Positions 15,409 through 38,769 of a stretch of DNA of 64,000 nt are shown one piece after another (the first letter of the stretch is position 1; each line of letters starts with the position of its first letter). The stretch lies in IMG/VR virus record IMGVR_UViG_3300022602_000029, positions 96,001 through 160,000 of that record; one strand, given 5' to 3'. The position numbers were made by a program, and so were the translations under genes. The notes below the pieces were generated by a model. That model ran no database searches, was not told the DNA's origin, and saw only the letters and a program-made list of their open reading frames with translations. The DNA is from a virus.

Positions 15409-15663
15409 TTAATATTCGTAGAACTCAACCGTAGGATCCAAGGCCTTGAGCTCTGCGGCCACTTGTGTCAGTTGCTTGTAGCGGCGCTGGACTTCACTGC
15501 GAGGTAACTCACCATCACAGCTAAGGTTCTCAGGGCTTAGTGCCGCATCGATGTGTGCAGCGAGTTGGCGGCGGCCTACTGCTGTAGTGATCTCATACTG
15601 GCGGCCGTTGAACATGGCGTTCCACTTGTTTTGCTGGGCGATGTAGGCTTTGAGTGCTGTCAT
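15409..15663 (-). CDS. early conserved phage protein
   Basis: AAGGAG RBS, promoter 15684-15712; LSPENLSCDGE motif. Confidence 0.75.
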   Translation of the reverse strand: MTALKAYIAQQNKWNAMFNGRQYEITTAVGRRQLAAHIDAALSPENLSCDGELPRSEVQRRYKQLTQVAAELKALDPTVEFYEY

Positions 15664-15777
15664 ATGTGCTCCTTAAAAACATTATTATACTGCCAAATAA
15701 TACCCCAGTCAACCTTAGGGTCTTTCTCTCAGTCCTTCCCTGCACGCTGCGTCGTGAAACCTGATGACATGGTCGTG

Positions 15778-15813
15778 AAAAAGCCCCAGAGATCCAACGT
15801 TAGGATCCTGGGG
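15778..15813 (-). terminator. intrinsic terminator
   Basis: GCCCAGGATCC...GGATCTCTGGGGC followed by TTTTT. Confidence 0.55.
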
Positions 15814-15856
15814 CTAGTGCCTGGGGAGCGACTACCAGGACTTTGGGAGCAACCTA

Positions 15857-16132
15857 TTAAAGGGTGATGCCCAGGGCCATGGCCTTGTAACCTAGAGCTA
15901 CTAGCTCCTGGCTTGGGGTTCCCATTACATACTCTACCACGTGAGCGTTGTTACCTGCTACACGGTTCTTACGATATACAGCGAAACCATGCTGACGAAC
16001 ACGGCTGACCTCAGCGCTGATGTTTTTGATACCAAAACGCTTTTCAGCTTGGCTAGCAGTAATACGCTCGCCGGCCTGTAGTGCCTTGAATAACTTGTAT
16101 GCTTTGGTTTCTTGATTGAACTTCTTAATCAT
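15857..16132 (-). CDS. putative winged-helix DNA-binding protein
   Basis: LFKALQAGERITASQAEKRFGIKNISAEVSRVRQHGFAV fits a wHTH pattern. Confidence 0.6.
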   Translation of the reverse strand: MIKKFNQETKAYKLFKALQAGERITASQAEKRFGIKNISAEVSRVRQHGFAVYRKNRVAGNNAHVVEYVMGTPSQELVALGYKAMALGITL

Positions 16133-16179
16133 TTTTGTTGTTTCCTATATGTTGCTGTACTTAAACAGTTACATATATA

Positions 16180-16470
16180 TTACGCTTTCTTTACTGGCTT
16201 TGCAACTGGTTTTTTATCCAACTTCTTACTATTTCGTCCAACTGATCTAATGCTTGTTTCATTCTTCGCTCCAAATTCTTTTGTTACGTAATAGCGGATT
16301 AGGGATCTCTGGATCATCGTTACGAGATCCCCGTTGTCATCCGTGATGAACCGGACCGGACAGCGTCCCCAGGTGCCCAACCTTTGGAACTCTTCGAACC
16401 ACTTGCGATGGGCCTTGAGTTCCGGGTCAAAGACTACCCAGGGTCTACACATGTATGAGAGTCTACTCAT
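16180..16470 (-). CDS. early conserved phage protein
   Basis: RPWVVFDP..K.HRKWF...GTWGRCPVRF. Confidence 0.65.
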   Translation of the reverse strand: MSRLSYMCRPWVVFDPELKAHRKWFEEFQRLGTWGRCPVRFITDDNGDLVTMIQRSLIRYYVTKEFGAKNETSIRSVGRNSKKLDKKPVAKPVKKA

Positions 16471-16498
16471 TGGGTATTACAGCGGGGTCTCTGTATGT

Positions 16499-16906
16499 TT
16501 AGAAAGGTGCGTCTTCGAGATCGGCCTTAGTAGCGATACCTAATGGAGCCATGCCCTCTAGCGCTGGAACCTGTGGAGTTACCGCAGCCTTAGCTGGAGT
16601 TTCTTTCTTAGGCTTCTTAGCTTCTTTGTTAGGCTTTTGCTCTTTCTTGGCAGCCTGTGTAGAGACCCCACGCTTCTCAGCGGCAGCTTCGAGAGCGGCA
16701 CGCACGGCTTTGTTGCCGTTGTCAAAGTTGATGCTCAACAGGTATGCTACAGCATCTTCCTTGGTCATGGGGTTCTTGAGCTCGATGATATCGATATCTT
16801 TGTGCCCATTTTTACGTAGTACCTTGACACGCATAGCGTCATTGCAGAAGCGGACTTTGAACTCACCGTTTTGTTTTGAAACTCCGGCATGTGTGAACTT
16901 AGACAT
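16499..16906 (-). CDS. early basic hypothetical protein
   Basis: AAGGAG RBS before MSKFTHAG; Lys/Ala-rich tail. Confidence 0.7.
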   Translation of the reverse strand: MSKFTHAGVSKQNGEFKVRFCNDAMRVKVLRKNGHKDIDIIELKNPMTKEDAVAYLLSINFDNGNKAVRAALEAAAEKRGVSTQAAKKEQKPNKEAKKPKKETPAKAAVTPQVPALEGMAPLGIATKADLEDAPF

Positions 16907-16983
16907 GTTAATCTCCTTGTAAATGTCTGTGTGTGAAAAATAACTAACTGGAACTATTAATATAGCACAGCTAGTTCGAACTG

Positions 16984-17259
16984 TCAACTGTTAATAGTTT
17001 CGAAAGGGCTCAGATCTTCGGTCTGTGGCTGATCCGCCACACCCTCACCATCCAACCAAGCTAACACCATCTCGATTGGAATCTCGAGCACGTTGGCGAT
17101 GGTTTTGGCACTCATGCCGTCGATGTAGAGTTGCTCGATATCATATGCGATGTCTTTCATTGCGCTCATTTCGTTCTCCAGTTTAGTGATTTCAATCTCA
17201 TCCCTAACCCCTCGGCTAGGGCTTTCCCTTAGTGCTTGTAGTCGAGCATGGATACTCAT
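16984..17259 (-). CDS. early protein with C-terminal HTH-like segment
   Basis: IEQLYIDGMSAKTIANVLEIPIEMVLAWL. Confidence 0.6.
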   Translation of the reverse strand: MSIHARLQALRESPSRGVRDEIEITKLENEMSAMKDIAYDIEQLYIDGMSAKTIANVLEIPIEMVLAWLDGEGVADQPQTEDLSPFETINS

Positions 17260-17271
17260 AGTTGCTCCTTG

Positions 17272-17760
17272 TTAAGCGATTAGTTCCATAGTGTCAGAAA
17301 CAGAAGCCAATGCTTCAGCTAGTGGCACTAGCTTGTTGTAAAACTTCACGTCTGATTCGTAGGTGTTGCCCGCATACCACACACCATCCTGCATGATGTA
17401 GTACCATTCAGCGCCGCAGCCTTCAGCACGCTCAAAGAACTTGTCAAAGGTGTCGTCTACCTTCCACTCAGTACCAGTCTCGCCGCGATCGCGTCCGTAA
17501 AAGGTACAGCTATCACCGTGCTCGGCATCGTAGGCTGCCTGCTGATCTTCAGTGAGATCGTATGTGCTGAATGCATGCTTCTCTCCGATGTTCTTCTTGA
17601 GGCTGCTGAGATCGCCCAGTGATACTAGCTGGTTGGCCTTTGAGCTGTCGTAGTGTTGGGCTAAGAGTTGGCCATTGTGCTCTAGGTAGCCATCCCAGTG
17701 GCAGTATACGCTCTTGCAGTTGCTGCCGTGCATGACTCCGATGCGTGATCTTGTTCCCAT
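17272..17760 (-). CDS. conserved phage protein
   Basis: MGTRSRIG...VYCHWDGYL signature; own promoter 17794-17822. Confidence 0.8.
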   Translation of the reverse strand: MGTRSRIGVMHGSNCKSVYCHWDGYLEHNGQLLAQHYDSSKANQLVSLGDLSSLKKNIGEKHAFSTYDLTEDQQAAYDAEHGDSCTFYGRDRGETGTEWKVDDTFDKFFERAEGCGAEWYYIMQDGVWYAGNTYESDVKFYNKLVPLAEALASVSDTMELIA

Positions 17761-17818
17761 AAAGTTCGCTCCTTTTTGTTTAACAATAGATATATTATAC
17801 GATCAAAACTGCCGCCCG

Positions 17819-18043
17819 TCAACCAAAGGCACGCAATAACCCTACAACCATTATGGCTATTGATATCACGTTCACTGTCAGCTGTGGGCGATTCTTGACC
17901 CGATAGGCCCAGAAGGTAAAGGCCGCTGTGCCTACGGTGAAGCTCACGATGTTCCAGGGATAGGCCGCGGGCCCCACGCTGTTGAGTGCATGCCCTAGTA
18001 CTATGAGTACTGCGCCCGCCCACTGCACATGATCTAGCTTCAT
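17819..18043 (-). CDS. small multi-pass membrane protein
   Basis: Three hydrophobic segments; ATGA coupling. Confidence 0.7.
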   Translation of the reverse strand: MKLDHVQWAGAVLIVLGHALNSVGPAAYPWNIVSFTVGTAAFTFWAYRVKNRPQLTVNVISIAIMVVGLLRAFG

Positions 18044-18312
18044 ACCACTTCCAACATGTTAGCTGGCACCTTCCAGAGACCCTCTGTGGTGCTGACCGTG
18101 ACGTATTTCTGTGCGATCTTGGTCACACTGCCCTGCATGGTTCGGCCGCGCCGCACGCTGTTAAAGGTCACTGCCTGCCCTAGGCGTAGCCCGCGCTTGT
18201 TTTCAGAGATCAGCCTGTGACGGGCGAACTTGACAGCTTCAGTGATGGTGTTCAATTCATCATTAGTGAACGAACCATGGATGATGGCTTGGTTGACTTG
18301 ATCGATGTTCAT
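18040..18312 (-). CDS. early hypothetical protein with SH3-like C-terminus
   Basis: GQAVTF...GSVTKIAQKYVTV...WKVPANML. Confidence 0.7.
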   Translation of the reverse strand: MNIDQVNQAIIHGSFTNDELNTITEAVKFARHRLISENKRGLRLGQAVTFNSVRRGRTMQGSVTKIAQKYVTVSTTEGLWKVPANMLEVV

Positions 18313-18358
18313 GAGTGCTCCTTAAAAAAACTTAGTATACTATCGGTTTTACCATTTG

Positions 18359-18763
18359 TCAAGCTTCTTTATAGTGCTTCCACTTGTTGTGATCTCCTGC
18401 TCGCTTGCCTTTTTCCGAATGGCATAAACTACAGAGTTCCTGTAGATTTTGTGGACGATTGTCCGTGTTATCACCGTTCTTGTGATCTACTTCTGTGCTT
18501 AGTTTAAAGCCTGTAGATGCTACCAAGTCCCAATCTACTACACAGGGGAACCCTAGCCTGCTATTAATGTTAGAACAACGATTTTTCTTGAACCTTTTAA
18601 CCCCCGGAGCCAATGGATAATCCATATAGCTGTTCTTGTGACAAGTGCCGCAGAACACTCTATATCTCACATCTGATCCACCTACTCGTCCCCTCTGAGT
18701 GGCGCAGAGACTGCCACAGCCTGGGTTGATACAGATCGGTCTAAAATGTAATACTCGTCCCAT
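18359..18763 (-). CDS. Zn-binding HNH endonuclease-like protein
   Basis: EVDHKNGDNTDNRPQNLQELCSLCHSEK plus CxxC pairs. Confidence 0.8.
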   Translation of the reverse strand: MGRVLHFRPICINPGCGSLCATQRGRVGGSDVRYRVFCGTCHKNSYMDYPLAPGVKRFKKNRCSNINSRLGFPCVVDWDLVASTGFKLSTEVDHKNGDNTDNRPQNLQELCSLCHSEKGKRAGDHNKWKHYKEA

Positions 18764-18816
18764 AAGTCGCTCCTTGTTAGTCTATGTCGCTATTATACTG
18801 CCAAAATAAAGACCCT

Positions 18817-19137
18817 TCAATCTCCCCGGGTATCAGTGTTGAGCTCTGGGCGCAACTGCCTGCGTAGCTCCACTTCTCTGCGGTGCGCCTCGGCCTTGCC
18901 CCTGATGACTTCTAACACTGCTACAGTGATCTGGCTCTTGTCCTCTAGCAGCCTCAGCACTGAGCAGAGGCTCCAGTCCTTGGCCTCCGTGTGCGCACGA
19001 TAGAAGTGCTTGGCAGCACGGGTCCTGGCGCTTTTCAACGCTGTAGACTCTGTCTTAGCCGTGACACCCACGTAGCGCAGTGTGCCCACTGTCAGCTGAT
19101 AGATCACATGATTTCGATCGGTTCTTTTCTTTCTCAT
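18817..19137 (-). CDS. GIY-YIG-like nuclease
   Basis: HVIYQL......YVGVT, R...H and E motifs. Confidence 0.65.
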   Translation of the reverse strand: MRKKRTDRNHVIYQLTVGTLRYVGVTAKTESTALKSARTRAAKHFYRAHTEAKDWSLCSVLRLLEDKSQITVAVLEVIRGKAEAHRREVELRRQLRPELNTDTRGD

Positions 19138-19200
19138 ACACATATTATACAGTCGGTTTTACCATTTGTCAACCCTATGCTTGTAAAGATATGTAAAGCT

Positions 19201-19461
19201 TCAATCAGTAGGTCCCTTCTGCACCCTAGCCGCGGGATCTCCTCCGAGGATCCTCTTGATCTCAGTATCTGGATCACCCCGGGCCCTGGCCGATCTCCAT
19301 TCCGTTTCTCGCTGCTCGTCCTGAGCGCTGTCCTCTGTATACTGTCCGGGGCACACAGCATAGTCTGAATCACAGGCCGTGCCCCACAACAGCTCCGCTA
19401 AGACCCAGATCAAGAACACCACGAGGAACATGGTTTCTAGGGTCCAATCCGTCTTTTTCAT
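19201..19461 (-). CDS. early membrane-anchored hypothetical protein
   Basis: N-terminal TM segment; AAGGT upstream. Confidence 0.5.
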   Translation of the reverse strand: MKKTDWTLETMFLVVFLIWVLAELLWGTACDSDYAVCPGQYTEDSAQDEQRETEWRSARARGDPDTEIKRILGGDPAARVQKGPTD

Positions 19462-19475
19462 AGTTAGATACCTTC

Positions 19476-19745
19476 TTTGATCTTAGAGAAACCCCGGCAG
19501 GACCTTCACGATCCCTGCCGAGGCTCAATCTGGGCTACTGCTAGTTCAGTTCCCAGAGCCCTCCTCCCCGTTTATGACTACCTCATATACGGTATAGCAC
19601 GCGGCTGCCTCCGCGAGGATTCTAGCACAGCACGGCTCCATGATGATCGCTCATCTCAGCTAGGCTGCCTCCTTAGTTCCGGCGCTTATCTAGACCACGG
19701 CAGCGGCTAGATCAAACCCGGGATTCTCTGTGCTATAGGCTTATA
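19476..19745 (-). ncRNA. candidate structured non-coding RNA or long leader (family not recognised)
   Basis: Follows promoter 19752-19780; end-to-end helices 19720-29/19485-94 and 19709-16/19476-83; hairpins at 19495-19520, 19600-19615, 19660-19676. Confidence 0.5.
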
Positions 19746-19780
19746 GTCACTAGTATACAGCCAATACACTACTAGGTCAA

Positions 19781-20460
19781 CGTGTATATAGTACTAGACA
19801 CATATACACTCATGTAGCTATACACACATGTAGACATATACTCTAGCTCAAGATCCACACGCACATACCAGGACGGCTCTTAGCAGCGGGGTCATTTTAG
19901 ATCTAACTGTATATAGCTGGCTATATGGTCCTAGACCGTAGGGGCGCAGAATCAGGGGATTTCTGGTAAAATCGGTAGGAAAAACTGTGAAAACCATACC
20001 TAGATCTGTTGTTTCTACGCTGAAATCTAGCGTAATAAATCTTGACAGGCCGTTTGGCGAGACAGGCTATGCCAAAATACTTTTCAAGTTATCCACAGGC
20101 TATCCACAGCTTATACACATGTTATACACTCGTTATCCACTGGGTTGTCAACGTAGAAGTCACCCTGCTATCCCCTGCTAGAGCTTTACAGCGGGGTCAT
20201 CTTACAGTACAGCCAGAGTTAACTAGAGTTAGCATCTATCTTCTACTAGAAGATCTGGGCTATTCTAGCTTTTTTTACCGCTGAGCCTTACAGGCTAACT
20301 ACGGACTAACTAAGGGTTAACTAGCTACAGCGGGGTCTTTACAGCTATTAGACTATTCGTGTATACTGTGTGTACTGCGATTAGATATCTTATACGGGCA
20401 TTTGTATCTAGAATCACTATGAGTAGCCGGTGATGTGTGTCACTAGCACTTAGACATATT
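19781..20460. other. non-coding strand-switch region, possible replication origin
   Basis: No credible ORF; DnaA-box-like array, repeated TACAG and CAGCGGGGTC motifs. Confidence 0.4.
20089..20141 (+). repeat. five tandem DnaA-box-like 9-mers at 11-bp period
   Basis: TTATCCACA 20089, CTATCCACA 20100, TTATACACA 20111, TTATACACT 20122, TTATCCACT 20133. Confidence 0.85.
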
Positions 20461-20470
20461 GCTTCTTGGC

Positions 20471-20478
20471 TATAAATA
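20471..20478 (+). promoter_or_regulatory. T4-late-type promoter
   Basis: Exact TATAAATA, 7 nt before ATG at 20486. Confidence 0.75.
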
Positions 20479-20485
20479 TCTCTAT

Positions 20486-21640
20486 ATGAGATACAAAGAA
20501 TTCGCACCTACTGAGTCTGTTACAGCTGGTACATCTGATTGGCAACCGCTTTATCAGCTTTCACGACAGCTATATCAGCACGTCTATATCAAGGCTCTGG
20601 GACCGCGTGTTAGAGTACAGGTCAAGGACCTAGACAGCGTCTACACAGATCGCGATGGTAGTGATCTAGATGGTAAGATAGATCTAGAGTTTTGGCTAGA
20701 CGCTCCGCATGACTGGGACGTTATTAAGCAGAGCTACGAAGCTGGTGAGGATGATCACTGGCTAGTTGACTATCACATCACAGAAGCCGCTGATCAAGTA
20801 GCTGATGCTATACGTCGCTACTATGGCGATACTTGGGCTGAGATCAGCAATGAGCTAGAGGGCGGTTGGGGAGTGGATGGATCAGTCACAGAAGATGTGC
20901 AGTCGGCGGAACCGCTACCTCTGCGTGGCTATGAGAATCTCTACGTAGAAGATAGTTCACAAGGGCCCTTGCTCTATGGTGTAGACCTAGAATGGCACGG
21001 GGAATCGGGCATCATAGGTTGGTTTGACTTCACGGCTAATCTCTCGACTGGTGTATTCGAGATAACTGGTAATAGGGCCAACAGAACTAGTGGGGGCGAG
21101 TTCGACACTGACGGTGACCTAGAGCGGTGGATCGAAAGCTGTATCGAGGACGCACAGCGCGAGTATGGTACCGATTGGGATGATATCGATAGCGAGCTAC
21201 ACGGCAGCTGGGGAGTAGATGACACTGATGAATCCCTTGGTCAAGTGGCCAGCTTAGAAGCTACACCCATAAAAAACATCGATTCAGATCGTCTACAGCA
21301 GGCCATCACTACCATAGCCCAGTTGGTGCACGATCGACAGATGGCCTATGGTGTGGCCCAGCGTAGCACCCTAGAAAAGGAACAGGCCGCCAGATACCAA
21401 AAACGCTACGCCGCTGTAGCCGCAGATCGACTCAAGGCAGAACAGGGCGAACTGGCCGTGGCAGATCTGGCTACGGCCCTGTATCGATATGTCTATCAAC
21501 ATCAAGCAGGGCACCCCATGGGCGGTAGCAAGAGCCATAACCCCCTGCTACGTGACTTTTTAGAAAATGATGTTACTGTGTCAGTAGATGATCAAGGCGG
21601 ACTGCATCCCGAAGAAAGCAGTTGGGGTGTCGACAGCTGA
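20486..21640 (+). CDS. acidic late protein with internal repeats, possible internal head protein
   Basis: MRYKEFAPTE N-terminus; repeated YG.xW.xI..EL.G.WGVD motif. Confidence 0.7.
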   Translation: MRYKEFAPTESVTAGTSDWQPLYQLSRQLYQHVYIKALGPRVRVQVKDLDSVYTDRDGSDLDGKIDLEFWLDAPHDWDVIKQSYEAGEDDHWLVDYHITEAADQVADAIRRYYGDTWAEISNELEGGWGVDGSVTEDVQSAEPLPLRGYENLYVEDSSQGPLLYGVDLEWHGESGIIGWFDFTANLSTGVFEITGNRANRTSGGEFDTDGDLERWIESCIEDAQREYGTDWDDIDSELHGSWGVDDTDESLGQVASLEATPIKNIDSDRLQQAITTIAQLVHDRQMAYGVAQRSTLEKEQAARYQKRYAAVAADRLKAEQGELAVADLATALYRYVYQHQAGHPMGGSKSHNPLLRDFLENDVTVSVDDQGGLHPEESSWGVDS

Positions 21641-22809
21641 TGAGAGCACGGGATTTCCTGCTGTTGGAATACGACAGATCCAAGACCCTAAAGACCTTTG
21701 GCACCAAGCTACTGCAGGCCCTGGCTAGAGATCCCACAGCGGACCCCAAGCTCAAACATCAGCAGGATCCCAAGCAGGTATTAGATCAGATAGAAACTAA
21801 CGACCCCACTGAGCACAAGGAATACACACAATGGCTGGCCAAATGCTACAGCAATGAGGCGGTCAAGCTAGAGGACATCAACAGCAAGGCACAAGAAGCC
21901 CTGGCCCTTTATCATCAGATGAAACGCAAGCGCCTGTTCCGTGGTGAATACAGCGCCTGGGGTGACATCTACAAGCTGTCATTCCGTGATCTGCTGAAGG
22001 TGGTGAATACTGCCCAGCTGAGCCAACAGCTGAATCGAGAAAAGAAAGAACGACCCAAGGGTAGCGCCACAGAAATACTACGCAACGACCAAGTGCGTAT
22101 CTTGAAGATCAACGATGAGGCCGCGGCCAAATACTACGGGCAGGGCACCACATGGTGCACTTCAGGTGACAAGGACAATCGTTTCAACTACTACAACGAC
22201 AAAGGCCCCATATTCGTGCTACTGCCCCAACACCCCCAGTATCAGGGTGAAAAGTATCAGATACACATAGCCACAGATCAGTTCATGGACCCCCAGGATG
22301 AGCCAGCAGGCGGGGGTACTGACATGGGCAGTTGGTATCTGTTGAAACGACGCTTTGGCGACATCACCTCCGTGATAGCAGAAAACGACCCCAACATTTA
22401 CCTTAACCTATACTTGATAGATGAAGTCACGTTCAACAGAGTATTGGACAAGGTCAAGGCCCTGGCCTATAGACGGGTGGGTGAGTTCCGTGATCTCTAC
22501 GGTGAAGATGCTCTACCCGATGATTGGATAGAAGAATACAATGAGTTTCTGGAAGAACTGGATCGGAGGGCCCTGATAGATCTACAGCAGGAACTAGACT
22601 ACCAAGATGGCCATCACAGGGATCTATTGGCCATACCAGATATGATAGCCTTGCCTATACTCAGCGAGCACTATGGTGTGCTGGGCGATCTAGACAACGG
22701 TGATCTTGCCCATGATCTAGCGCAGGCCATAGGCTACGGTATCGTGATCCAACATGATGGCAAGGGCAAGTTTACCGTAACTCTAGACCACCAATACGAC
22801 CCACATTAG
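21640..22809 (+). CDS. conserved phage protein with G-T-x-W-C motif
   Basis: TGATG overlap; MRARDFLLLE N-terminus; YYGQGTTWCTSG...F.YY. Confidence 0.7.
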   Translation: MRARDFLLLEYDRSKTLKTFGTKLLQALARDPTADPKLKHQQDPKQVLDQIETNDPTEHKEYTQWLAKCYSNEAVKLEDINSKAQEALALYHQMKRKRLFRGEYSAWGDIYKLSFRDLLKVVNTAQLSQQLNREKKERPKGSATEILRNDQVRILKINDEAAAKYYGQGTTWCTSGDKDNRFNYYNDKGPIFVLLPQHPQYQGEKYQIHIATDQFMDPQDEPAGGGTDMGSWYLLKRRFGDITSVIAENDPNIYLNLYLIDEVTFNRVLDKVKALAYRRVGEFRDLYGEDALPDDWIEEYNEFLEELDRRALIDLQQELDYQDGHHRDLLAIPDMIALPILSEHYGVLGDLDNGDLAHDLAQAIGYGIVIQHDGKGKFTVTLDHQYDPH

Positions 22810-23567
22810 GGTCCAGGGCTGAATATGGGCTTGGCCGCTAGGCTATCCGATGGGGGCTGTAGTATGGTCCAATCCGTGCCCAAGACAGGAGTTAGGTGTA
22901 TGTGGCTACGGGGTATCCAATACTTGTCTCCATCTATCTTGAGCTGATCCACTAGGTTGCTGAATGCGCTGTCTATCAGGATCATGGCCTGGGCACCCTC
23001 TATGACCTTGAGCCAATCAAACACGCTGTCAGTCAAGGCCCTTATTTCTATGCGTTGCCAGTCCGAAGGTACGTTGCTGAGATCAGCCGCACACCTGTAG
23101 GTGCTACCCTCTGTGTGATAGACCATGTACTGCTCTTGGGTCACTACCTTATCATAGAGCCGTTGCTCTCGCTCTGGGTTCCTAGTGATGCACTCACCTA
23201 GGGTCCATTTCTTCAGGAAGGGTACCCCCGCTTTAGAATACTTGAACTCGTCAAAATGCTGTATCTGGAAGAAGGGCTGTTGGCTCAGTTCTGGGCGTAT
23301 GTTCAGGGCCTGGTATAGGCATATGATCTCATCGCACTTGAAGGCCTTGAGCCTCTTTTCGGGCTCGGTATAAAAGAAGTCGCCCTTGCTGTCTTCGGGT
23401 ATGGGTATCCAGTGTACCCAAGGCACTGTCTCTTTGACAGACCCCCAGAATGGCTCACAGATGGGCCAATAGATCTGGTAGCCCTCATCGGCCCAGTATC
23501 GGGCGATGGGCAGGGCTATGATGATATCACCTAGCCCCCTTGATTGTATGATTCCTAGTTTCTTCAT
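22806..23567 (-). CDS. glycosyltransferase-like protein (GT9-like N-terminus)
   Basis: IIQSRGLGDIIIALPIAR; LIDSAFSNL near C-terminus. Confidence 0.65.
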   Translation of the reverse strand: MKKLGIIQSRGLGDIIIALPIARYWADEGYQIYWPICEPFWGSVKETVPWVHWIPIPEDSKGDFFYTEPEKRLKAFKCDEIICLYQALNIRPELSQQPFFQIQHFDEFKYSKAGVPFLKKWTLGECITRNPEREQRLYDKVVTQEQYMVYHTEGSTYRCAADLSNVPSDWQRIEIRALTDSVFDWLKVIEGAQAMILIDSAFSNLVDQLKIDGDKYWIPRSHIHLTPVLGTDWTILQPPSDSLAAKPIFSPGP

Positions 23568-23571
23568 ATTT

Positions 23572-24513
23572 TTAGTTATCGAATTCAAAAAGTTGATCGA
23601 GCAATGTTGGCGCTTGGCTCGGGGGTGTTATAGAAGGACTGTGTAACAAGATCTCCTCAGCGGTCTTGGCCGTATGGGTAGTGTTGTTGTTTTCATCTAC
23701 GGTCTTGGCCCTGCGTCCTGCTGTATAGGTGATAGGGTATTTCTTTAGTATCAACTGACCCTGTTGCTGTGTGTAGAACGCATCTCCGCATTCTCTGTTA
23801 CAGTAGAACACTAGATCTCCTGCTAGGTCCTGTTGCCGACAGAACGTGATCAGATTGGTATGATCCTGATCAGTAAAGGTCTGGCTATAACTGGTAAAGC
23901 TATCTCTATAGGGTGGGTCAAAGAACCAAAAGGTCCTGCCCTGTTTCAGCGCAGTACAGTTCTGCCAGATACCGCAGGTGATGTCTACCCTTTGTAGGAA
24001 GTTATGCCATTCTATAACATTGTCTCTGTCATAGACCTTGACCGTTTGATTTAGCAATCCGCTGGGTGTGGCGAATCTGCCATTGCTGGTCTGGTTAGTC
24101 TGCCATATGCCGTTGAAACCGGTCTTCATCAAGAAGTAAAGGCTAGCACTTTCATCTGTGCTGTTCCATTGATGCCAGTTAGTGGTATACTCTCTGCGTA
24201 GGTCGTAGTAGAAAGCCTTGCGATCTATCTTAGATAAAGGTAGATACTGTAGCGTGAGGGCATCCATACGGGCCATGAAGTTCACGTGATCTGATTTGAT
24301 AGCCCTGTAGATACCTATGATCTCTGCGTTGATATCATTCAAGATAAACTTAGTGATGTTGGGACAGTTTTGGGCTACCCAACACATCATAGCGCCTCCT
24401 CCAAAGAAGGGTTCAGCGTAGGTATCATACCCAGATGTGGGTATGCCTGGATCCACTAGATATTTAGGGATCATCTTGTTCTTGCCACCTGCCCAGATAT
24501 ATAATGGTTTCAT
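23572..24513 (-). CDS. dam: DNA adenine methyltransferase (Dam/D12 class)
   Basis: WAGGK, EPFFGGGA, LNDIN, FNG, FFDPPY motifs. Confidence 0.92.
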   Translation of the reverse strand: MKPLYIWAGGKNKMIPKYLVDPGIPTSGYDTYAEPFFGGGAMMCWVAQNCPNITKFILNDINAEIIGIYRAIKSDHVNFMARMDALTLQYLPLSKIDRKAFYYDLRREYTTNWHQWNSTDESASLYFLMKTGFNGIWQTNQTSNGRFATPSGLLNQTVKVYDRDNVIEWHNFLQRVDITCGIWQNCTALKQGRTFWFFDPPYRDSFTSYSQTFTDQDHTNLITFCRQQDLAGDLVFYCNRECGDAFYTQQQGQLILKKYPITYTAGRRAKTVDENNNTTHTAKTAEEILLHSPSITPPSQAPTLLDQLFEFDN

Positions 24514-31790: not shown

Positions 31791-31798
31791 TATAAATA
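31791..31798 (+). promoter_or_regulatory. T4-late-type promoter heading the radical SAM operon
   Basis: Exact TATAAATA, then AAGGA RBS before 31827. Confidence 0.75.
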
Positions 31799-31826
31799 TT
31801 GCAAAGCATATTAAAAAGGAACTTTT

Positions 31827-32933
31827 ATGGTAATTGACTTAAACGTAACAAGTACATGCAATCTAGCGTGTACTTATTGCTCTGAGGGATACGAGTGCGG
31901 CCTATCAACTGCCTATGAAGAAAACACAGAAGTAACGCTGGATGATATAGAGCAATTTATGGCTAAGATAGATGATCCTAAACGAGACATATATTTCTGG
32001 GGAGGTGAACCTTTTGTAAACTGGGAATTCTGCCGAGGAGTGATGGAGAAATACAAGGATGATCCTAACTATAACTTTTTCTTTTATACCAACGGAGTCT
32101 ATCTAAAGAAATATCTAAAAGAGCTGGTACGTTTCCATGAAGCTATGCCAAATAGGTTAAAGATACAGGTTAGCTATGACGGTAAACCTGTTAATGATAT
32201 CACACGTATAGATAAAAAAGGAGATCCCAGCAGTAGATTGGTTAAGAGTAACTATCTAGCGGCTAAGAACGCAGGGTTGAATGTCAAAATGAAATCTGTA
32301 TTAACCGCAGAACATTTCCATCTTATATATGAGGCTTTTCTTGATGTAATCGAGCTGGACGATAACTACTTCCCTACGCCTGATATGTATAGCCAGCTTA
32401 CATGGGAAGAGTTTCAACCCAAATTAGAAATACTCAAGGAAGGACTGGCTAAGATAGCCAAATACATCTATGTGAACAAATTGCCTCCAGAGAAGTTTGG
32501 TTGGTTCACACAGTCACGTGCTCTATGCGCAAGCGGCATTAACTATGTGTCAGTTGATTTGAATGGCGATATCAGTCCATGTCATGGTTGTATGTATAAA
32601 GAATCACATGCGCATGTCATGGGCAATATATTACAAGCACCAGACATAGACGCTTTGATTAAAGAAAAGACTCAGATGTACAAAGATGCTCTGCAGAATC
32701 AACCTCTGGACTGCCAGTCATGCGACAGTCAGTTCTGCATGAAGTGTAATGCCGCTACGTTTGAAAAAAGTGCAGGCGAAACATATCTAGACAAATGGAG
32801 TGATCATACCAGTAACTGGCAGGTATGTAGAGTGTTCAAGGCTAACGAAGTTGTACATCATGCCCTACGCACAGCTTTAAAAAGTTATAAGAAACCAAGA
32901 TTTGAAATAAAGGCAGAACAATGTTCACTCTAG
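31827..32933 (+). CDS. radical SAM/SPASM domain protein 1
   Basis: CNLACTYC, WGGEP; SPASM CASG...GDISPCHGC...CQSCDSQFCMKC...C. Confidence 0.93.
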   Translation: MVIDLNVTSTCNLACTYCSEGYECGLSTAYEENTEVTLDDIEQFMAKIDDPKRDIYFWGGEPFVNWEFCRGVMEKYKDDPNYNFFFYTNGVYLKKYLKELVRFHEAMPNRLKIQVSYDGKPVNDITRIDKKGDPSSRLVKSNYLAAKNAGLNVKMKSVLTAEHFHLIYEAFLDVIELDDNYFPTPDMYSQLTWEEFQPKLEILKEGLAKIAKYIYVNKLPPEKFGWFTQSRALCASGINYVSVDLNGDISPCHGCMYKESHAHVMGNILQAPDIDALIKEKTQMYKDALQNQPLDCQSCDSQFCMKCNAATFEKSAGETYLDKWSDHTSNWQVCRVFKANEVVHHALRTALKSYKKPRFEIKAEQCSL

Positions 32934-34045
32934 AAATATCAGTAACAGAAAAATGTAACTTAGGATGTCCCTACTGTTACGTTGCTAATCGTCCTACATG
33001 GATGGAACCGGAAACATTTGACAGAGCTTTACCAGAGTTATACAAACTAATGAATCGCAGTGGGGATGTTGACTATCATGTCAGTTTCTTCGGCGGTGAA
33101 CCCTTGCTTAACTTTGATCTGATTAAACATGCTGTTCCTAAGCTAGCCGCTGATCCTAAATGTAAAGGGATCAACATCATAACCAACCTCACTATGATAG
33201 ATGAGGAAAAAGCCAAATACCTAAAAGAAAACAATGTCGGGGTCAGTTGGAGCTTTGATGGGATGAGCAGTAATGAAACACGACCATTATTGCCTTTGCT
33301 AGAAAATACAAATCCAGAAACAGGAGAACTGTTTAATGGTATCTTGGATATGTACAACTATAAAAAAGATCTAATCACTGATCTTACTAACGGCTGCAAG
33401 GTCATGATATGGCCGGGTAATACCAAAGACATGACTGAGAACTTTGAGTTCTTACTAGGCTGGGGAATCGAACATCCGGATTTTAGTATTGTTCGTGATG
33501 ATGTTTGGACTAGAGATGATATAGTTGAGTTCAGATATGAATGCGAGAGATTAGCCGACGCATGGATCATCAAGATCAAAGAAGGCATTCCTTGTAGTGT
33601 AGGATTCCTAAGACTAGCGATCCTAGATATATTATTTGGGTTAGTTAAAGGTAAGAGACAGTTTGGTTGTTTCGCAGGAACTAACGGCGGTGTGCTAATG
33701 AGCAGTGGAGAGTTTTATCCATGTGCTCGCTTCGCTAGTAAAAAGATAATGAAGATGGATGAGCAGTATGATTTCAAGTATTATCAAAACATATTTAATC
33801 CTGGAAGCTATGACAAATGTCAGCCTTGTGATCTTAAGCAGGTATGTAACGCAGGATGTACCTACAGCCAAGTTATGAATGATAATAAACCTTTAGATTC
33901 AGTTTGTGAACTATTTCACATCTATTATGAACAGGCTATGAGAGTAGTAGCCGCATGTAGGAATGAACCTATCTTCCAAGACCTAATATTACATTACATT
34001 GAAAACGTAGGTGTAGAATCAGAAGGTGTAGAATGCAGGAACTAA
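32921..34045 (+). CDS. radical SAM/SPASM domain protein 2
   Basis: CNLGCPYC, FFGGEPLL, SFDG; CFAG...GEFYPC...CQPCDLKQVCNAGC...C. Confidence 0.95.
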   Translation: MFTLEISVTEKCNLGCPYCYVANRPTWMEPETFDRALPELYKLMNRSGDVDYHVSFFGGEPLLNFDLIKHAVPKLAADPKCKGINIITNLTMIDEEKAKYLKENNVGVSWSFDGMSSNETRPLLPLLENTNPETGELFNGILDMYNYKKDLITDLTNGCKVMIWPGNTKDMTENFEFLLGWGIEHPDFSIVRDDVWTRDDIVEFRYECERLADAWIIKIKEGIPCSVGFLRLAILDILFGLVKGKRQFGCFAGTNGGVLMSSGEFYPCARFASKKIMKMDEQYDFKYYQNIFNPGSYDKCQPCDLKQVCNAGCTYSQVMNDNKPLDSVCELFHIYYEQAMRVVAACRNEPIFQDLILHYIENVGVESEGVECRN

Positions 34046-34350
34046 AAAAGAAAACCTATCGCAGTTTGGCAAGTATTCCTGTCAAGGTAGAGATGCAGCC
34101 CGTTGAACATGCTACTGATCGTGTATTGACTACAGAAGAACTACAAGAGCAGATAGAAGAAGCACGTAAAGGCAAGGCCAAGGTAGATAGTAAGTATGTA
34201 GGTTTCGAGTTAGATGAACGCGGACATCTATTTGAATATAAACTAGACTATGTTTCTTTTTTATCCGATATGAGTTATATCATCAAAGAAGCTAAAAAGA
34301 GACCAAAAGAAAACAGATACAAAAATACTCACGAGATGATTATACAATGA
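34033..34350 (+). CDS. small accessory protein in radical SAM operon
   Basis: Overlaps both neighbours; no recognised motif. Confidence 0.65.
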   Translation: MQELKKKTYRSLASIPVKVEMQPVEHATDRVLTTEELQEQIEEARKGKAKVDSKYVGFELDERGHLFEYKLDYVSFLSDMSYIIKEAKKRPKENRYKNTHEMIIQ

Positions 34351-35240
34351 TACCCATCATACAGGAAAATCCAGGATTAGGTTTCTATGTAGGAGATTCT
34401 ACAGATAAACCCACACCTGTAGGGTCTGGTGTGAATGTAATCTATTTTACGAATAAATGTAATCTGGCCTGTACCTACTGCTATGAAGATCTTCCAGGTC
34501 GTCCTCCGCAGATAATGACGCGAGAAGATATACGTAAATCAATAGATATGATATTATCCAGAGAGAATCCTGATAACCAGACCTTGATAGTATTATTTGG
34601 AGGAGAAGCTACTCTAGAATGGGAAAATGTCTGCTACTGCATGGAGTATGCCTACAGTAAAAAGACTAACATACACTTTAATCTCACTACTAATGGTATA
34701 AAATATCTCAGTCAAAAGTTTATCGACGAAACTAAAACTAACTTTTTCTACAGTATGGGCCTATTAAGCATAGATATCAGCTTTGATGGTGTTGGTAATG
34801 GGGACAGAGTATTCCACAACGGATCGGATTCTACCCTTTCTATGATCAGAGTTTTTGGAAATCTCTTGAAGAATAACGTGAAGTTTAGGATAAGATACAC
34901 TATGCATCATAGAAATATCAATAATATCTATGAAGATATATCTATGATCATCAATAAGTTCCGTCCTACGAGATTAATCACCAGTGTAGCCTGGGATACA
35001 TTACAAGACGGTGATAGATCTAAACTAGAGTCAGCAAAAGAACTGTTCAGAAAAGACTGGATAAATAAAAAAATAACTATTCCTGTCTGCGAATTCTTTT
35101 GTGATATGTGTAGCGGATGCGGAGAGAGGAAAGAATTGAAAACATACTACACAGATGAAGGTAACGTAACTACTTATGGTAACTATGAAAACGCTCCAAA
35201 GTTCCATGATTTTAAAGAAAAGGTAACAATATGTCAGTAA
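34347..35240 (+). CDS. radical SAM protein 3 (short Cys tail, no full SPASM)
   Basis: CNLACTYC, FGGEATL, TTNG, SFDG; CEFFCDMCSGC. Confidence 0.92.
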   Translation: MIPIIQENPGLGFYVGDSTDKPTPVGSGVNVIYFTNKCNLACTYCYEDLPGRPPQIMTREDIRKSIDMILSRENPDNQTLIVLFGGEATLEWENVCYCMEYAYSKKTNIHFNLTTNGIKYLSQKFIDETKTNFFYSMGLLSIDISFDGVGNGDRVFHNGSDSTLSMIRVFGNLLKNNVKFRIRYTMHHRNINNIYEDISMIINKFRPTRLITSVAWDTLQDGDRSKLESAKELFRKDWINKKITIPVCEFFCDMCSGCGERKELKTYYTDEGNVTTYGNYENAPKFHDFKEKVTICQ

Positions 35241-35605
35241 TCGAAAAAATGAACCAAATAGCGTCTCTGATAGGTGAGATCAAACAGGAAGATGAAAATG
35301 CTGGAAATCTTCTGGCAGAAGGGTTTCTTCTATCAGCTAAACTAATGCAGGAGATAACAGAAGCTGGAAATAGAGACAAGATTGATATTTCAGAACATTT
35401 AGCGATGATCGGAAGAGTTTTTGGTTTCACCGTGGAAGACCTAGTAAAATTTGTATTACAGAATAACTTCCAAAGCGTCGAATCAGACAAAGAACCTGAT
35501 CCGGCCACATTAGAATTTATAACCAGCGATCTAGACGACTATGAAAAATTCTTAGCACAGAATAAAGCAAAGGAAGACCTAGATTTCCTATCTAAGGAGA
35601 TTTAA
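35231..35605 (+). CDS. small acidic accessory protein
   Basis: In operon immediately before the Cys-rich gene. Confidence 0.65.
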   Translation: MSVIEKMNQIASLIGEIKQEDENAGNLLAEGFLLSAKLMQEITEAGNRDKIDISEHLAMIGRVFGFTVEDLVKFVLQNNFQSVESDKEPDPATLEFITSDLDDYEKFLAQNKAKEDLDFLSKEI

Positions 35606-35607
35606 AA

Positions 35608-36396
35608 ATGACCTATTGTTCTTGCCTAGCCTGCGGTTCAGTTTGCTGTAACGCCACTGGCGGGGGTACTTGTGGACCTCAAGGATGTTGTGCTTCCTAC
35701 GCTACAGCCTCATTAAGTTATAGTACAGGTATATGTGGCGCCGGAAGTTGTTCCTACACACCTACTTCTCTATCAGGAGTGATCTGTGGAGCTTGTTTTT
35801 GCCAACTATTGACTAATGTCTGCTGTGAAATGTGTAGAAGGAATCGTAGTGCTCCTAGCGGATGGGGACAGAGTAATCCTATTAATCACTCTGATTTTAA
35901 CAGTTTGGTAAACTATATCAACCAATCTAGTTGTTGGCCTGCCGCTTGCTATCAAAGCTATTGTAATGGTAGTACGACTCCATGTAGTCAATCTAGTGCT
36001 GGAGCTCCATCGGGGGTTCCCGCAAACGCTAACGCAGGAGATGTAATTTATAGTAGCTGTATAAATGCCTTAGTCAGCGCCATAGTTACTGCTGGTAATG
36101 CCTGTACCTGTAACTGCAACTACTGTACATGTAACTGCAACTACTGTACCTGTAACTGTAACTATACATGTACCTGTAACTGTAACTACAGTGATATCAG
36201 ATTGAAAAAGAATATCAAACTATTGAAAACTATTAAGGGTATAAACATCTACAGTTTTAACTATGAATGGGATGACACAGAACAGATAGGAGTGATGGCA
36301 CAAGAATTATTAGAATCAGGACATGACTATGCTGTCACTACAGATTCGAATGGGTTTTATATGGTTGATTACAGCAAACTACCAGTGAAGATGTAA
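35608..36396 (+). CDS. Cys-rich (CTCNCNY)x4 protein fused to Peptidase S74 intramolecular chaperone; candidate radical SAM substrate
   Basis: 33 Cys in first 194 aa; SDIRLKKNI...GVMAQEL S74 signature begins at residue 195. Confidence 0.85.
   Translation: MTYCSCLACGSVCCNATGGGTCGPQGCCASYATASLSYSTGICGAGSCSYTPTSLSGVICGACFCQLLTNVCCEMCRRNRSAPSGWGQSNPINHSDFNSLVNYINQSSCWPAACYQSYCNGSTTPCSQSSAGAPSGVPANANAGDVIYSSCINALVSAIVTAGNACTCNCNYCTCNCNYCTCNCNYTCTCNCNYSDIRLKKNIKLLKTIKGINIYSFNYEWDDTEQIGVMAQELLESGHDYAVTTDSNGFYMVDYSKLPVKM
36103..36189 (+). repeat. four in-frame 21-bp repeats (TGTAC[C/A]TGTAACTG[C/T]AACTA[C/T])
   Basis: Copies at 36103, 36124, 36145, 36169; differences are synonymous. Confidence 0.95.
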
Positions 36397-36405
36397 GGAA
36401 GTAAA

Positions 36406-36804
36406 ATGGATTATAAAGAAGTAGAAGGAATAGATGCTAACACATACGCAGGTAAAGCCGCTCAGGCCTGTAAGGTAAAAGCGAGAGGTATATTGGGAGA
36501 TGATCTTTTAACTTTTAAACTTATTGATTTTGTATCATTTATTATGATAAACAATCGGTTTTTAAATAAAGGGATTATCATAACTGATGAAAACAAAGAA
36601 GAAGGATATATCAAGATTATAGAAACAGGAGATGAATCTCTAATATCCGATCTAGAAAAGTACCTAGATCTTAGGGATAGTATTAAGAGTATAGAAAATT
36701 CTAAGAATGAATACTCTGATATCATCAATAAACTTAAATCATTGCAGGATCATAATGATAGAGATTCAGTCAATGCTATAGTCGAAGAATATCTAAGACG
36801 ATAA
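36406..36804 (+). CDS. small helical accessory protein
   Basis: AAGGAAG RBS; directly follows the Cys-rich gene. Confidence 0.65.
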   Translation: MDYKEVEGIDANTYAGKAAQACKVKARGILGDDLLTFKLIDFVSFIMINNRFLNKGIIITDENKEEGYIKIIETGDESLISDLEKYLDLRDSIKSIENSKNEYSDIINKLKSLQDHNDRDSVNAIVEEYLRR

Positions 36805-36820: not shown

Positions 36821-37828
36821 ATGTTAATAATAGTAAATACGATCGATTCAATCAATAGAAATCTTATAGGATTACGACTATTAGAAACATTCAACGACTT
36901 TAAGATAGACAACTTGACTGTGAAGATTGAAGGAATGGCCAGCAGTTTAACTAACTATGTTCTATATAACGAACAAGGATCAATAGTATATCCTACAGAA
37001 CCAGTTGATACAGATGCTTTGGAAAAACTTATATCTTTCCAAAACGATAGACTGTCAATAACTAGATCAGACCTACTAATCAAATTAGATTTTGCTTCTG
37101 TTGAGCATGATTATGGAATATTAAATAATCCTATCATGGAAAATCTAGATCAACCGTTAAACACTTACGAAGCTCAGTTAGATGCTTATCGTAATGATAG
37201 CAATAGTTGCAGAGTGATCGTTGGTATTTTTGGAAAATGGTTCATAGACAAGATGAGACAAGATATAGGAGCCGATAAGGTCAAGGTCCTAAATATTGTC
37301 AGGAATCCATCTGTTTGTTTTGTCTTAAATCAGACTCAAAATAAACAAAACGATCTATTTAAAGAATATAAACATTTAAGAAAATCAATATTAAATGCCG
37401 TAAGTTTATCTAGATTTGATGATATCACCACAGTCAAGTTTGAAGATATGTTATCATCAGGATCGATAATCTTTGATGGTGTTACTATCACATTACCTGA
37501 ATCGTATCAAAACCATAATAATCTGTTGACAGCATACGAATATCATAATCTGATATCTAAAGCTACTGATCAAAATCTAGATCAGTTTAACCAAGAGTAT
37601 TCAAACTACGAATTAGATCATTTTGTAGATATTACCGCAGAAGAAAAAACACAACAGACTCCGCCTCCAATCGGACTTTACGGATTTGTAAAAATTAAAG
37701 ATCATATCACTTTTACAAATCAAAAACTTGGATTAAATATTGCCGAGGAGACATTGACTCCTTTAAGCATGAACATTTTTACATCTCTCGGATATAATCC
37801 GTTATCACTTTCTCAAATATCTAGTTGA
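36821..37828 (+). CDS. possible sulfotransferase-fold protein
   Basis: KVLNIVRNP and VKFEDM resemble sulfotransferase motifs; P-loop not clear. Confidence 0.4.
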   Translation: MLIIVNTIDSINRNLIGLRLLETFNDFKIDNLTVKIEGMASSLTNYVLYNEQGSIVYPTEPVDTDALEKLISFQNDRLSITRSDLLIKLDFASVEHDYGILNNPIMENLDQPLNTYEAQLDAYRNDSNSCRVIVGIFGKWFIDKMRQDIGADKVKVLNIVRNPSVCFVLNQTQNKQNDLFKEYKHLRKSILNAVSLSRFDDITTVKFEDMLSSGSIIFDGVTITLPESYQNHNNLLTAYEYHNLISKATDQNLDQFNQEYSNYELDHFVDITAEEKTQQTPPPIGLYGFVKIKDHITFTNQKLGLNIAEETLTPLSMNIFTSLGYNPLSLSQISS

Positions 37829-38769
37829 GATTTAAAAATATCGAGCAGTACAAAATGTCTAAGATATTTAATCTCAAGCAATATGATCTAGTCTTCACTA
37901 CTTCGTTTTATATCAAACACGGAGTGTCTGGACACATGTATGAGTTGATTGATTATTATTATATTTGTAAAAAGTCTGGAATCAACTGTGCTATCCTTTT
38001 AGCAGACGGCGTTGACAAACAAACATTTTTCAATGCGATCAAATACAAATACAACTTTGACATAGATATCCTAAAGGATACACACCAATGTCATAACCCT
38101 AGAATTATTAGAACTAAGAATATCTGCATCGTAGATGGTTCCTGGAGAGTTAATGACTGTACAATATATGCAGACAACGCATTCTTATTAAGATGCTCAG
38201 AAGACGACTATACTTGGTTTGATACCAGTAAGTCAATTAAGCAAACACATCTTATGCAGGACTTTAAACTGTATCCAGAACGATACCGAGACTTAAACAT
38301 TAAGGTTGTTGATTATGTTAAGAAAATACTTTGGAGCAAATATGTACAGCCCAAACCGACTAATAACGATACCGGTTTGTTTTATCTAACAACTAACTGT
38401 AGAGCAATCCCTGCAGAAGAAGTTAAAGCTATTATGGATAAGGGTATATGTACAAATTATATTATAGTCACTGACCGTCCTAATCTTTACCAACCTCTGT
38501 TGGCTGATAATGTATCTATAGCACAGGCTCCATTACAGAATATATTTGAACATTTTGACACCTACATATATACTAAGACAGAATTACAGTCTGATTGCAG
38601 TCCTAGGTTTATTGTTGAGTGTGCTATGTTTGGTAAAAACGTTGTTTACGAAATTGATTATCTATGCGCAGGTGTAGAACGTAGAAAACAGGACATAGAT
38701 GCAGACTTATCAAGTTTAGAATTAACTACAGATGATTACTTTGTAGAATACGTAAAACAGTTTATATGA
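37825..38769 (+). CDS. GT-B (GT4-like) glycosyltransferase-like protein
   Basis: C-terminal DCSPRFIVECAMFGKNVV; start may be ATG 37855. Confidence 0.5.
   Translation: MRFKNIEQYKMSKIFNLKQYDLVFTTSFYIKHGVSGHMYELIDYYYICKKSGINCAILLADGVDKQTFFNAIKYKYNFDIDILKDTHQCHNPRIIRTKNICIVDGSWRVNDCTIYADNAFLLRCSEDDYTWFDTSKSIKQTHLMQDFKLYPERYRDLNIKVVDYVKKILWSKYVQPKPTNNDTGLFYLTTNCRAIPAEEVKAIMDKGICTNYIIVTDRPNLYQPLLADNVSIAQAPLQNIFEHFDTYIYTKTELQSDCSPRFIVECAMFGKNVVYEIDYLCAGVERRKQDIDADLSSLELTTDDYFVEYVKQFI

Follow-up and report, generated by a model that had tools for sequence, protein, structure and literature searches.

What are three radical S-adenosylmethionine (rSAM) genes doing around a cysteine-rich, fibre-type gene in a phage genome? 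The question is raised by a 64,000-nt stretch of viral DNA, positions 96,001 to 160,000 of IMG/VR record IMGVR_UViG_3300022602_000029, which we call the window; positions are those of the window unless another locus is named. A first-pass annotation of this DNA had described an exact late-promoter motif, TATAAATA, heading a tightly coupled block of two rSAM/SPASM genes, a small open reading frame (ORF), a third rSAM gene, another small ORF, a gene for a 33-Cys protein with an S74 domain and a further small ORF. Every one of these elements was confirmed in its place, the genes lying on the + strand in the order R1, R2, 105-amino-acid (aa) ORF, R3, 124-aa ORF, 262-aa Cys protein and 132-aa ORF. 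The features that carry the argument are as follows.

31791-31798, + strand: TATAAATA, a T4-type late-promoter-like motif, exact match, in a 38-nt gap, 29 nt 5' of the first ATG
31827-32933, + strand: R1, 368 aa, radical SAM with a full SPASM domain (Pfam Radical_SAM 51.6 bits, SPASM 24.3 bits)
32921-34045, + strand: R2, 374 aa, radical SAM with a seven-Cys SPASM motif (Pfam Radical_SAM 51.4 bits)
34347-35240, + strand: R3, 297 aa, radical SAM with a Cx3Cx2Cx2C tail (Pfam Radical_SAM 42.5 bits)
35608-36396, + strand: Cys-heptad protein, 262 aa, 33 Cys (Peptidase_S74 34.4 bits, cut-off 22)

Since three rSAM enzymes of the Cys-stapling kind share an operon with a fibre-type heptad protein, we propose, from the genes and their arrangement, that the phage probably cross-links one of its own proteins, and that the Cys-heptad protein is probably part of the virion. 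The more specific reading, in which the rSAM trio staples the Cys heptads of a trimeric virion-type protein, has in our judgement an even chance of being right.

Comparison with relatives indicates that the conserved feature of the candidate substrate is the block (C-T-C-N/D-C-N-Y)n with its 12 Cys, and not the 33 Cys by which the protein had at first been characterized. That count itself is correct, and all 33 lie N-terminal of Ser195. Four 21-bp repeats (36102-36189) encode four CTCNCNY units, aa 166-194, directly before the S74 cleavage Ser, and the 21 additional Cys are in aa 1-165 (35608-36102), where close relatives have none. Several of these extra N-terminal Cys stand at sites in helices where relatives have Asn, Glu or Ile, e.g. 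ICGACFCQLLTNVCCEMCRR vs I.A..FN.L...IN.ER.RRG. A search found 680 relatives of the Cys protein, most of them with exactly 12 Cys, all within the repeat, and nearly all carry CTCNCNY-CTCNCNY-CTCNCNY-x-CTCNCNY directly before S-D-x-R-L-K. When 30 sequences were aligned, the 12 repeat Cys were found to be conserved (Cys170 in at least 90% of rows), as were Ser195, Asp196, Arg198 and Lys200, and the N-terminal part was conserved in the manner of a folded domain. In the AlphaFold2 (AF2) model of the monomer the S74 part has a pLDDT score (predicted local distance difference test) of >90 and three helices in the N-terminal portion are moderately modelled, while the repeat has a pLDDT of 35 and no structure; fold searches with this model gave matches confined to the S74/ICA domain, including the S74/ICA domains of many phage fibre proteins.

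The composition of the repeat was tabulated from 815 units in 160 distinct proteins, using a search pattern that demanded the three Cys and an aromatic residue at position 7. Position 2 is T in 79% of units, position 4 is N in 74% and D in 22%, position 6 is N in 96%, and position 7, within the aromatics that the pattern required, is Y in 96%. There are 2-28 units per protein (mode 4), spaced by 0 or 1 residue. Asn, Asp and Thr are acceptor residues of NxxcB and of the thioether maturase CteB. The acceptor residues of PapB and QhpD likewise include the Asn/Asp/Thr type, as these enzymes are cited in PMC13692751. In distant heptad proteins (L016, L022, L025, L033 and L037) a C-x-G-H-(S/T) motif was seen at the extreme N-terminus (MACNGHTNSC...) and also inside the small acidic ORFs between the rSAM genes of those loci, and could represent a second modification or metal site.

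Evidence for a functional connection comes from gene linkage. We fetched 48 loci from IMG/VR and seven from metagenome-assembled genomes (MAGs), each encoding a heptad protein; 31 of the IMG/VR loci are non-redundant. Homologues of R1-R3 were found no more than 10 kb from the heptad gene in 28/31 non-redundant IMG/VR loci and in 6/7 MAG loci, i.e. 34/38. The exceptions L018 and L023 are contigs cut just downstream of the heptad gene, and their relative L058 has its rSAM genes 4-9 kb downstream. Among Cys-free proteins with a similar S74 domain on comparable phage contigs, by comparison, none of four has an rSAM gene within 10 kb (34/38 vs 0/4, p ~6e-4, hypergeometric), and it follows that the rSAM genes track the Cys heptads and not S74 itself. 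The first-pass annotation had stated in advance that its proposal would fall if S74-Cys genes commonly lacked neighbouring rSAM genes, and this is not the case. The linkage is also kept in loci without the downstream island of rSAM and sugar genes (L015, L016, L020, L033 and L044). Furthermore, R1, R2 and R3 represent three separate orthogroups that are retained at 26-41% identity even in loci ordered R2-x-R3-R1-Cys, and in L015 the R3 homologue is the sole rSAM adjoining the Cys gene. Co-occurrence therefore supports the view that the rSAM enzymes and the Cys-rich S74 protein are functionally linked. The anatomy, conservation, gene linkage and enzyme class of the cassette are established.

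As to that class, R1, R2 and R3 all score above the Pfam Radical_SAM cut-off (PF04055, 29.5 bits) and possess the Cx3Cx2C motif, the Cys of which are present in 23-24/24 orthologues, and so belong to the radical SAM superfamily. A SPASM enzyme was defined by the pattern Cx9-15Gx4C ... Cx2Cx5Cx3C ... C, that is by seven Cys for two auxiliary clusters, the Pfam SPASM cut-off (PF13186) being 21.5 bits. In R1, Cys 11/15/18 and the seven SPASM Cys are kept in 23-24/24 orthologues (the SPASM seven in 24/24). R2 gives no Pfam SPASM match, yet all seven SPASM Cys are there (250, 268, 300, 303, 309, 313 and 329) and are kept together with Cys 12/16/19 in 24/24 orthologues, so that both R1 and R2 have the complete pattern. 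R3 lacks it, its sole auxiliary motif being Cx3Cx2Cx2C (Cys 248/252/255/258, kept in 23/24 orthologues; the radical SAM Cys 38/42/45 are kept in 24/24), and this tail could be a candidate site for one auxiliary cluster.

The top NCBIfam model for all three enzymes is the ranthipeptide maturase PapB (NF047865), with 127 bits for R2, 80 for R3 and 70-72 for R1, the R2 match spanning nearly the full length of the model; the five other rSAM proteins of the downstream island reach no more than 33 bits. The top solved structure is for R1, R2 and R3 alike the thioether maturase CteB (PDB 5WGG; E 3.5e-16 for R2). Since the CteB alignments of all three begin only at CteB residue ~100, past its recognition element (RRE) for peptides that are made by the ribosome and modified after translation (RiPPs), R1-R3 are peptide-maturase-like but RRE-less. 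These two top matches agree with the earlier assignment of the enzymes to the Cys-thioether peptide-maturase kind, which the sequence comparisons support. They do not place R1-R3 in any one characterized family: all are below the PapB equivalog cut-off of 340 bits, score 52-71 bits against a cut-off of 425 for the SCIFF maturase family (TIGR03974) of CteB while having no N-terminal RRE, and score 29, 23 and 22 bits against a cut-off of 525 for TIGR04463 (rSAM_vs_C_rich), the CrpC family. The QhpD model TIGR03906 is also among the top matches (52-74 bits, cut-off 453). Weaker model matches are to YhhB (cyclophane), anaerobic sulfatase maturase and sactipeptide maturase, and the anaerobic sulfatase-maturating enzyme (anSME) is among the structure matches.

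The module that follows the heptads is less constant than the heptads themselves. The window protein does have the self-cleaving S74 domain that had been reported for it, at aa 195-262, and its dyad of Ser195 and Lys200, five residues apart, is invariant in the 30 aligned sequences; what did not hold up is S74 as a defining part of the substrate. After the last heptad, a full S74 domain is present in 126/160 proteins, whereas 10/160 have the first ~12 S74 residues, including the Ser and Lys, and then a stop, 8/160 end within 8 residues and 16/160 have another, longer tail. In the split form, the Cys protein ends SDxxLKxxIxYx-stop and the remainder of the domain, S74 profile positions 16-57, is encoded by the next ORF (88-103 aa). 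The split pairs are located as follows.

L017, 9815-10696: split S74 pair, in two pieces (9815-10372 and 10385-10696)
L025, 9875-10779: split S74 pair
L027, 9632-10607: split S74 pair
L043, 9336-10210: split S74 pair
L014, 10914-11824: split S74 pair

Same-frame read-through is excluded as the cause of the split, since in 4/5 pairs the two pieces are in different frames. From their gene arrangement, the pairs may constitute a natural trans-acting intramolecular chaperone, and we know of no description of an S74 domain split across two genes. In L014, L016, L022 and L032 the heptad gene is present as two or three paralogues in tandem; those of L014 (L014:9501-11558; 190, 277 and 214 aa) include one with a full S74 domain and two with a truncated S74 start. 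In P0151 and P0177, which are among the 16 proteins with another tail, a Hint/intein-like start takes the place of S74 (the match is weak, with 27.2 bits where 28.4 is the cut-off), and the P0151 gene (L064:10001-11392) has radical SAM genes on both sides. With relatives in which S74 is split, replaced by a Hint-like module or absent, S74 as an obligatory part of the system is ruled out. The common denominator, as predicted from these chains, is a mature protein ending at or very near the heptad array.

Relatives adjoin large fibre-like genes, some of which give a mostly sub-threshold match to the intramolecular-chaperone domain Peptidase_G2, while others are collagen-like. Each of the 15 records of Firehammervirus (Campylobacter group II phages) has, among tail genes, a gene for a protein of 534 aa in which the CTC(D/N)CNY unit occurs six to seven times, and an R1-like rSAM gene 2.3 kb downstream of it. 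Two of these genes are referred to below.

L054 (Campylobacter phage CPt10), 160086-161690: 534-aa heptad protein
L062 (IBB_35), 4501-6105: 534-aa heptad protein

The 21-bp repeat of the Firehammervirus gene was recorded in 2010 without interpretation (PMC2853527). In some records the protein is labelled 'putative N-acetylneuraminate pyruvate lyase', for which the sequence gives no support. The IBB_35 protein, AEF56812.1, a distant relative of the window protein, has a computed mass of 60,317 Da and matches gene 3-9 (60,318 Da) of the published virion proteome. In pelagimyophages, rSAM cassettes have been located within the tail-fibre hypervariable region (PMC7029224). Outside the window, at G000:C1:61450-65020, two large S74 proteins (open frames of 792 and 1132 aa) are encoded side by side; these are presumably the main fibres, the Cys-heptad protein being a third, much smaller S74 protein.

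We propose that the enzymes of the cassette would mature a small protein of the fibre type, probably a trimer, with a helical N-terminal part that would be either a very large leader or the body of the protein. Late in infection, the heptad block, while unfolded, would be the target of R1-R3 (two SPASM auxiliary clusters each in R1 and R2, one 4-Cys cluster site in R3), and the Cys thiols would be converted to sulfur-to-carbon (ranthionine-type) thioethers to the side chains of neighbouring Asn or Asp, possibly also Thr or Tyr. Since R1-R3 are without an RRE, the substrate would be recognized via its N-terminal domain, via the small accessory proteins, or by both. S74 would then trimerize the chain and cut itself off exactly after the last Tyr. 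This would leave a fibre or decoration, associated with the virion, whose C-terminal tip is stapled and redox-inert. What we infer here is the reaction and its products, the sequence of the steps, and the location in the virion.

A number of points weigh against this model. The dense CxCxC array may, instead, serve to bind metal or to form disulfides. In L028 and L060, the flanks of which are readable, the heptad protein has no nearby rSAM gene; both records are fragments, that of L028 having an estimated completeness of 23%. R1-R3 fall far under the curated cut-offs of every characterized maturase family, so that a chemistry cannot be transferred to them with confidence, they have no RRE, and in Pfam and further family scans the small ORFs match no known RRE family. 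The detection of the IBB_35 protein in virions amounts to 2.6% coverage, roughly one peptide, and this protein has no S74 domain and shares only the repeat and the preceding helix with the window protein. Finally, a GT-B glycosyltransferase-like gene is present in the cassette, so other modifications may take part.

The best surviving alternative, which we nevertheless consider unlikely, is that the heptads are an intrinsic structural element of a trimeric fibre, either metal-binding or disulfide-bonded, and that the rSAM enzymes serve downstream sugars or cofactors, their linkage to the heptad gene reflecting a shared hypervariable host-recognition region. Such a tip would resemble the His-x-His iron ladder of T4 gp37, but with thiolates or disulfides. 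CxCxC arrays are classic metal ligands, S74 implies a three-fold structure with three thiolates per Cys layer, and the block is followed by five more rSAM genes, glycosyltransferase-like genes and sugar enzymes; L028 and L060 are also in keeping with it. It does not explain why R1-R3 stand directly beside the Cys gene in the five loci that have no island (L015, L016, L020, L033 and L044), why R1-R3 are of the peptide-maturase class (127, 80 and 70 bits on the PapB model, the island rSAM proteins reaching at most 33) or why rSAM genes are missing from beside the Cys-free S74 fibre genes of similar phages.

Somewhat more doubtful again is that the rSAM enzymes do modify the heptads but by another chemistry, such as sactionine formation (S-C-alpha), a Tyr cyclophane (YhhB-type), formylglycine (anSME) or epimerization, perhaps with a different job for each enzyme. 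The conservation of three non-redundant orthogroups, the different auxiliary-cluster region of R3, the 96% conservation of Tyr at heptad position 7 and the weaker matches to YhhB, anaerobic sulfatase maturase and sactipeptide maturase models and to anSME structures could all be understood in this way; against it, PapB and CteB are the strongest and longest matches, and the heptads do not contain the sulfatase motif C/S-x-P-x-R. It is improbable that the product is no virion part at all and is instead a RiPP-like factor (metallophore, toxin, anti-defence factor or signal), either released or intracellular, with a giant leader of ~165 aa and S74 as follower. In favour of this, the recognition part, Cys core and removable tail (fused S74, split S74, Hint-like or none) mimic leader, core and follower, the gene lies apart from the main S74 fibre genes of the window genome, and for a fibre the protein is small. 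Against it, the cassette is accompanied by no gene for a protease or a transporter, relatives are located within tail or fibre modules, the IBB_35 relative was detected in virions, and the conservation of the N-terminal part resembles that of a folded domain.

Returning to the stapling model, the most complete form of it brings all lineages together, and we put this forward tentatively, at rather less than an even chance. Several unrelated phage lineages, among them T4-like aquatic jumbo phages and Campylobacter Firehammerviruses, would carry a dedicated maturation of a structural protein, in which a universal CTC(N/D)CNY array is stapled by three RRE-less rSAM enzymes to give a thioether ladder, possibly decorated by a GT-B glycosyltransferase, and interchangeable self-removing modules (fused S74, split S74 or Hint-like) free the stapled C-terminus.

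The closest precedent for the general idea is archaeal. In Methanococcus voltae, the SPASM rSAM enzyme CrpC installs ranthionine crosslinks on CrpA, a large Cys-repeat protein, as determined by mass spectrometry (PMC13692751, September 2026); no virus is mentioned in that paper. The two systems are alike in that a SPASM rSAM gene lies beside a protein with a Cys repeat in its C-terminal part, that AlphaFold gives low confidence for the Cys region, and that the N-terminal part contributes to recognition by CrpC in CrpA and may do so here. They differ in that CrpC has an RRE and R1-R3 have none, that Crp uses one enzyme and the phage cassette three conserved orthogroups, that the Crp repeat is of 17 residues with C-x-x-Q/D and the phage repeat of 7 residues, CTCNCNY, and that Crp belongs to a cellular methanogen and has no self-cleaving domain, where the window has a virus and S74. 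In full-text searches of the open-access literature, no description was found of the heptad motif or of the maturation of a phage structural protein by rSAM enzymes. The architecture had been presented as unrecognised in the first-pass annotation; for viruses it is indeed undescribed, but since CrpC/CrpA shows SPASM rSAM thioethers on a Cys-repeat protein, it is not wholly without precedent. What is new here is the viral setting, the three RRE-less orthogroups, the heptad substrate and the coupling to self-cleaving modules.

In sequence, the nearest relatives of R1-R3 are PapB, acting on PapA (freyrasin), and CteB, acting on CteA, which combine an rSAM core and a seven-Cys SPASM domain with repeated Cys cores, and the acceptors of which are of the Asp/Asn/Thr type, as are residues in the phage heptad. 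PapA and CteA are peptides of up to ~45 aa with a leader bound by a fused RRE and their setting is not viral, whereas the candidate phage substrate has 262 aa and a viral, structural context. The RiPP-like features of the phage system are the N-terminal part and C-terminal Cys core beside maturase-type genes; the proteins have 140-530 aa, and an RRE was not found. QhpD provides a second case of a protein substrate, being a SPASM rSAM enzyme that makes several Cys-Asp/Glu thioethers within the protein subunit QhpC, as described where PMC13692751 cites it. QhpD differs in having an RRE, and QhpC in being a non-viral enzyme subunit with no repeat. The S74 domain of the window protein resembles those of the endosialidase K1F-type and MyRF ICA proteins in its score, Ser/Lys dyad and fold; known S74 domains trail triple beta-helix or other stalks in large proteins, and here S74 trails a Cys array in a protein of 262 aa. 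CPt10_1891, CPT_0180 and IBB_35 gene 3-9 are similar in that a helix of the same kind precedes the heptads and that a gene like rSAM1 lies nearby, and the Firehammervirus protein differs in its length of 534 aa, the internal position of its repeat, its lack of S74 and its single nearby rSAM gene, the identity with the window protein being limited to residues 144-196 (43%).

If the stapling model is true, viruses apply RiPP chemistry to their own structural proteins, and we would have here the first virion component with RiPP-like cross-links made by enzymes, a new route to a redox-proof fibre tip and a new, very large family of rSAM substrates. It would give a function to many orphan radical SAM genes of Campylobacter phages and pelagimyophages, and would provide enzymologists with three new RRE-less maturase families and a simple, highly repetitive substrate. 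It would also offer a cultured model in Firehammervirus and a testable link of rSAM genes to host recognition. The split S74 variants would represent a natural test of an intramolecular chaperone working in trans.

The window comes from a 193.7-kb virus record of 54% estimated completeness that contains a gene for the T4-type major capsid protein Gp23 (266 bits). Since relatives are on contigs of 332-364 kb, the capsid gene and these contig sizes together point to a large T4-like aquatic phage. In the INPHARED phage collection no match was found to the operon DNA, the flanking DNA or the Cys protein, with the proviso that low-complexity filtering may mask the repeat and that records close to the window may be absent from the collection. 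The late-promoter-like motif is not enriched in the window, where TATAAATA was observed five times against 6.7 expected by chance, and it is thereby ruled out as a statistically enriched window motif; its position alone is informative. Over the whole 193.7-kb record the placement is non-random, 7/10 copies being followed within 60 nt by the start of an ORF on the same strand (background 3.6%), and these positions are compatible with the role of a T4-type late promoter.

Within the block, neighbouring genes overlap by 4-13 nt or are separated by gaps of 2-16 nt. The limits of 31791-36804 given by the first-pass annotation stand for the start and the genes but not for the end, as tight coupling runs past 36804 into a 335-aa ORF, a 314-aa ORF and then five more radical SAM genes, and no terminator-like site was found on the + strand up to about 39.7 kb. 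The right border of the block is therefore arbitrary. The remaining genes of the cassette, with their occurrence among the 31 representative loci, are as follows.

34033-34350, + strand: 105-aa ORF, basic; in 12/31 loci, close clade only; no Pfam, PHROG or NCBIfam family
35231-35605, + strand: 124-aa ORF, acidic and helical; in 12/31 loci, close clade only; no known family
36406-36804, + strand: 132-aa helical ORF; in 22/31 loci, directly after the Cys gene or its split S74 piece
36821-37828, + strand: 335-aa ORF; in 12/31 loci, close clade only; no known family (Pfam, PHROG, NCBIfam)
37825-38769, + strand: 314-aa protein with a GT-B glycosyltransferase fold; in 20/31 loci; AF2 pLDDT 93

The 132-aa ORF, with the core LNN..KG..ITD.NREE.Y..II..GD, is the most widespread accessory gene after the rSAM genes. 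Its sole family match is PHROG 25260, of unassigned function, an Atlas search gave no usable match, and the predicted complex with the Cys protein (score 0.01, mark 0.32) is counted neither way. Homology of the 124-aa ORF with the small acidic ORFs found at the same place in distant loci was not detectable (hhalign probability 5%), and for this reason we claim neither homology nor an RRE role for it. For the 314-aa protein, which belongs to no sequence family, all top PDB matches of the model are GT-B glycosyltransferases (WaaG, MurG, WbnH, OGT, HMW1C/NGT) and the Atlas search likewise gave a glycosyltransferase lead (0.91); going by this modelled fold, it may glycosylate the heptad protein or may belong to the downstream sugar island. 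Elsewhere in the window, the region 6000-24000 has a G+C content of about 0.49-0.51, against 0.33-0.43 in the remainder, and many genes on the - strand, and its composition is foreign to that of the window's other parts.

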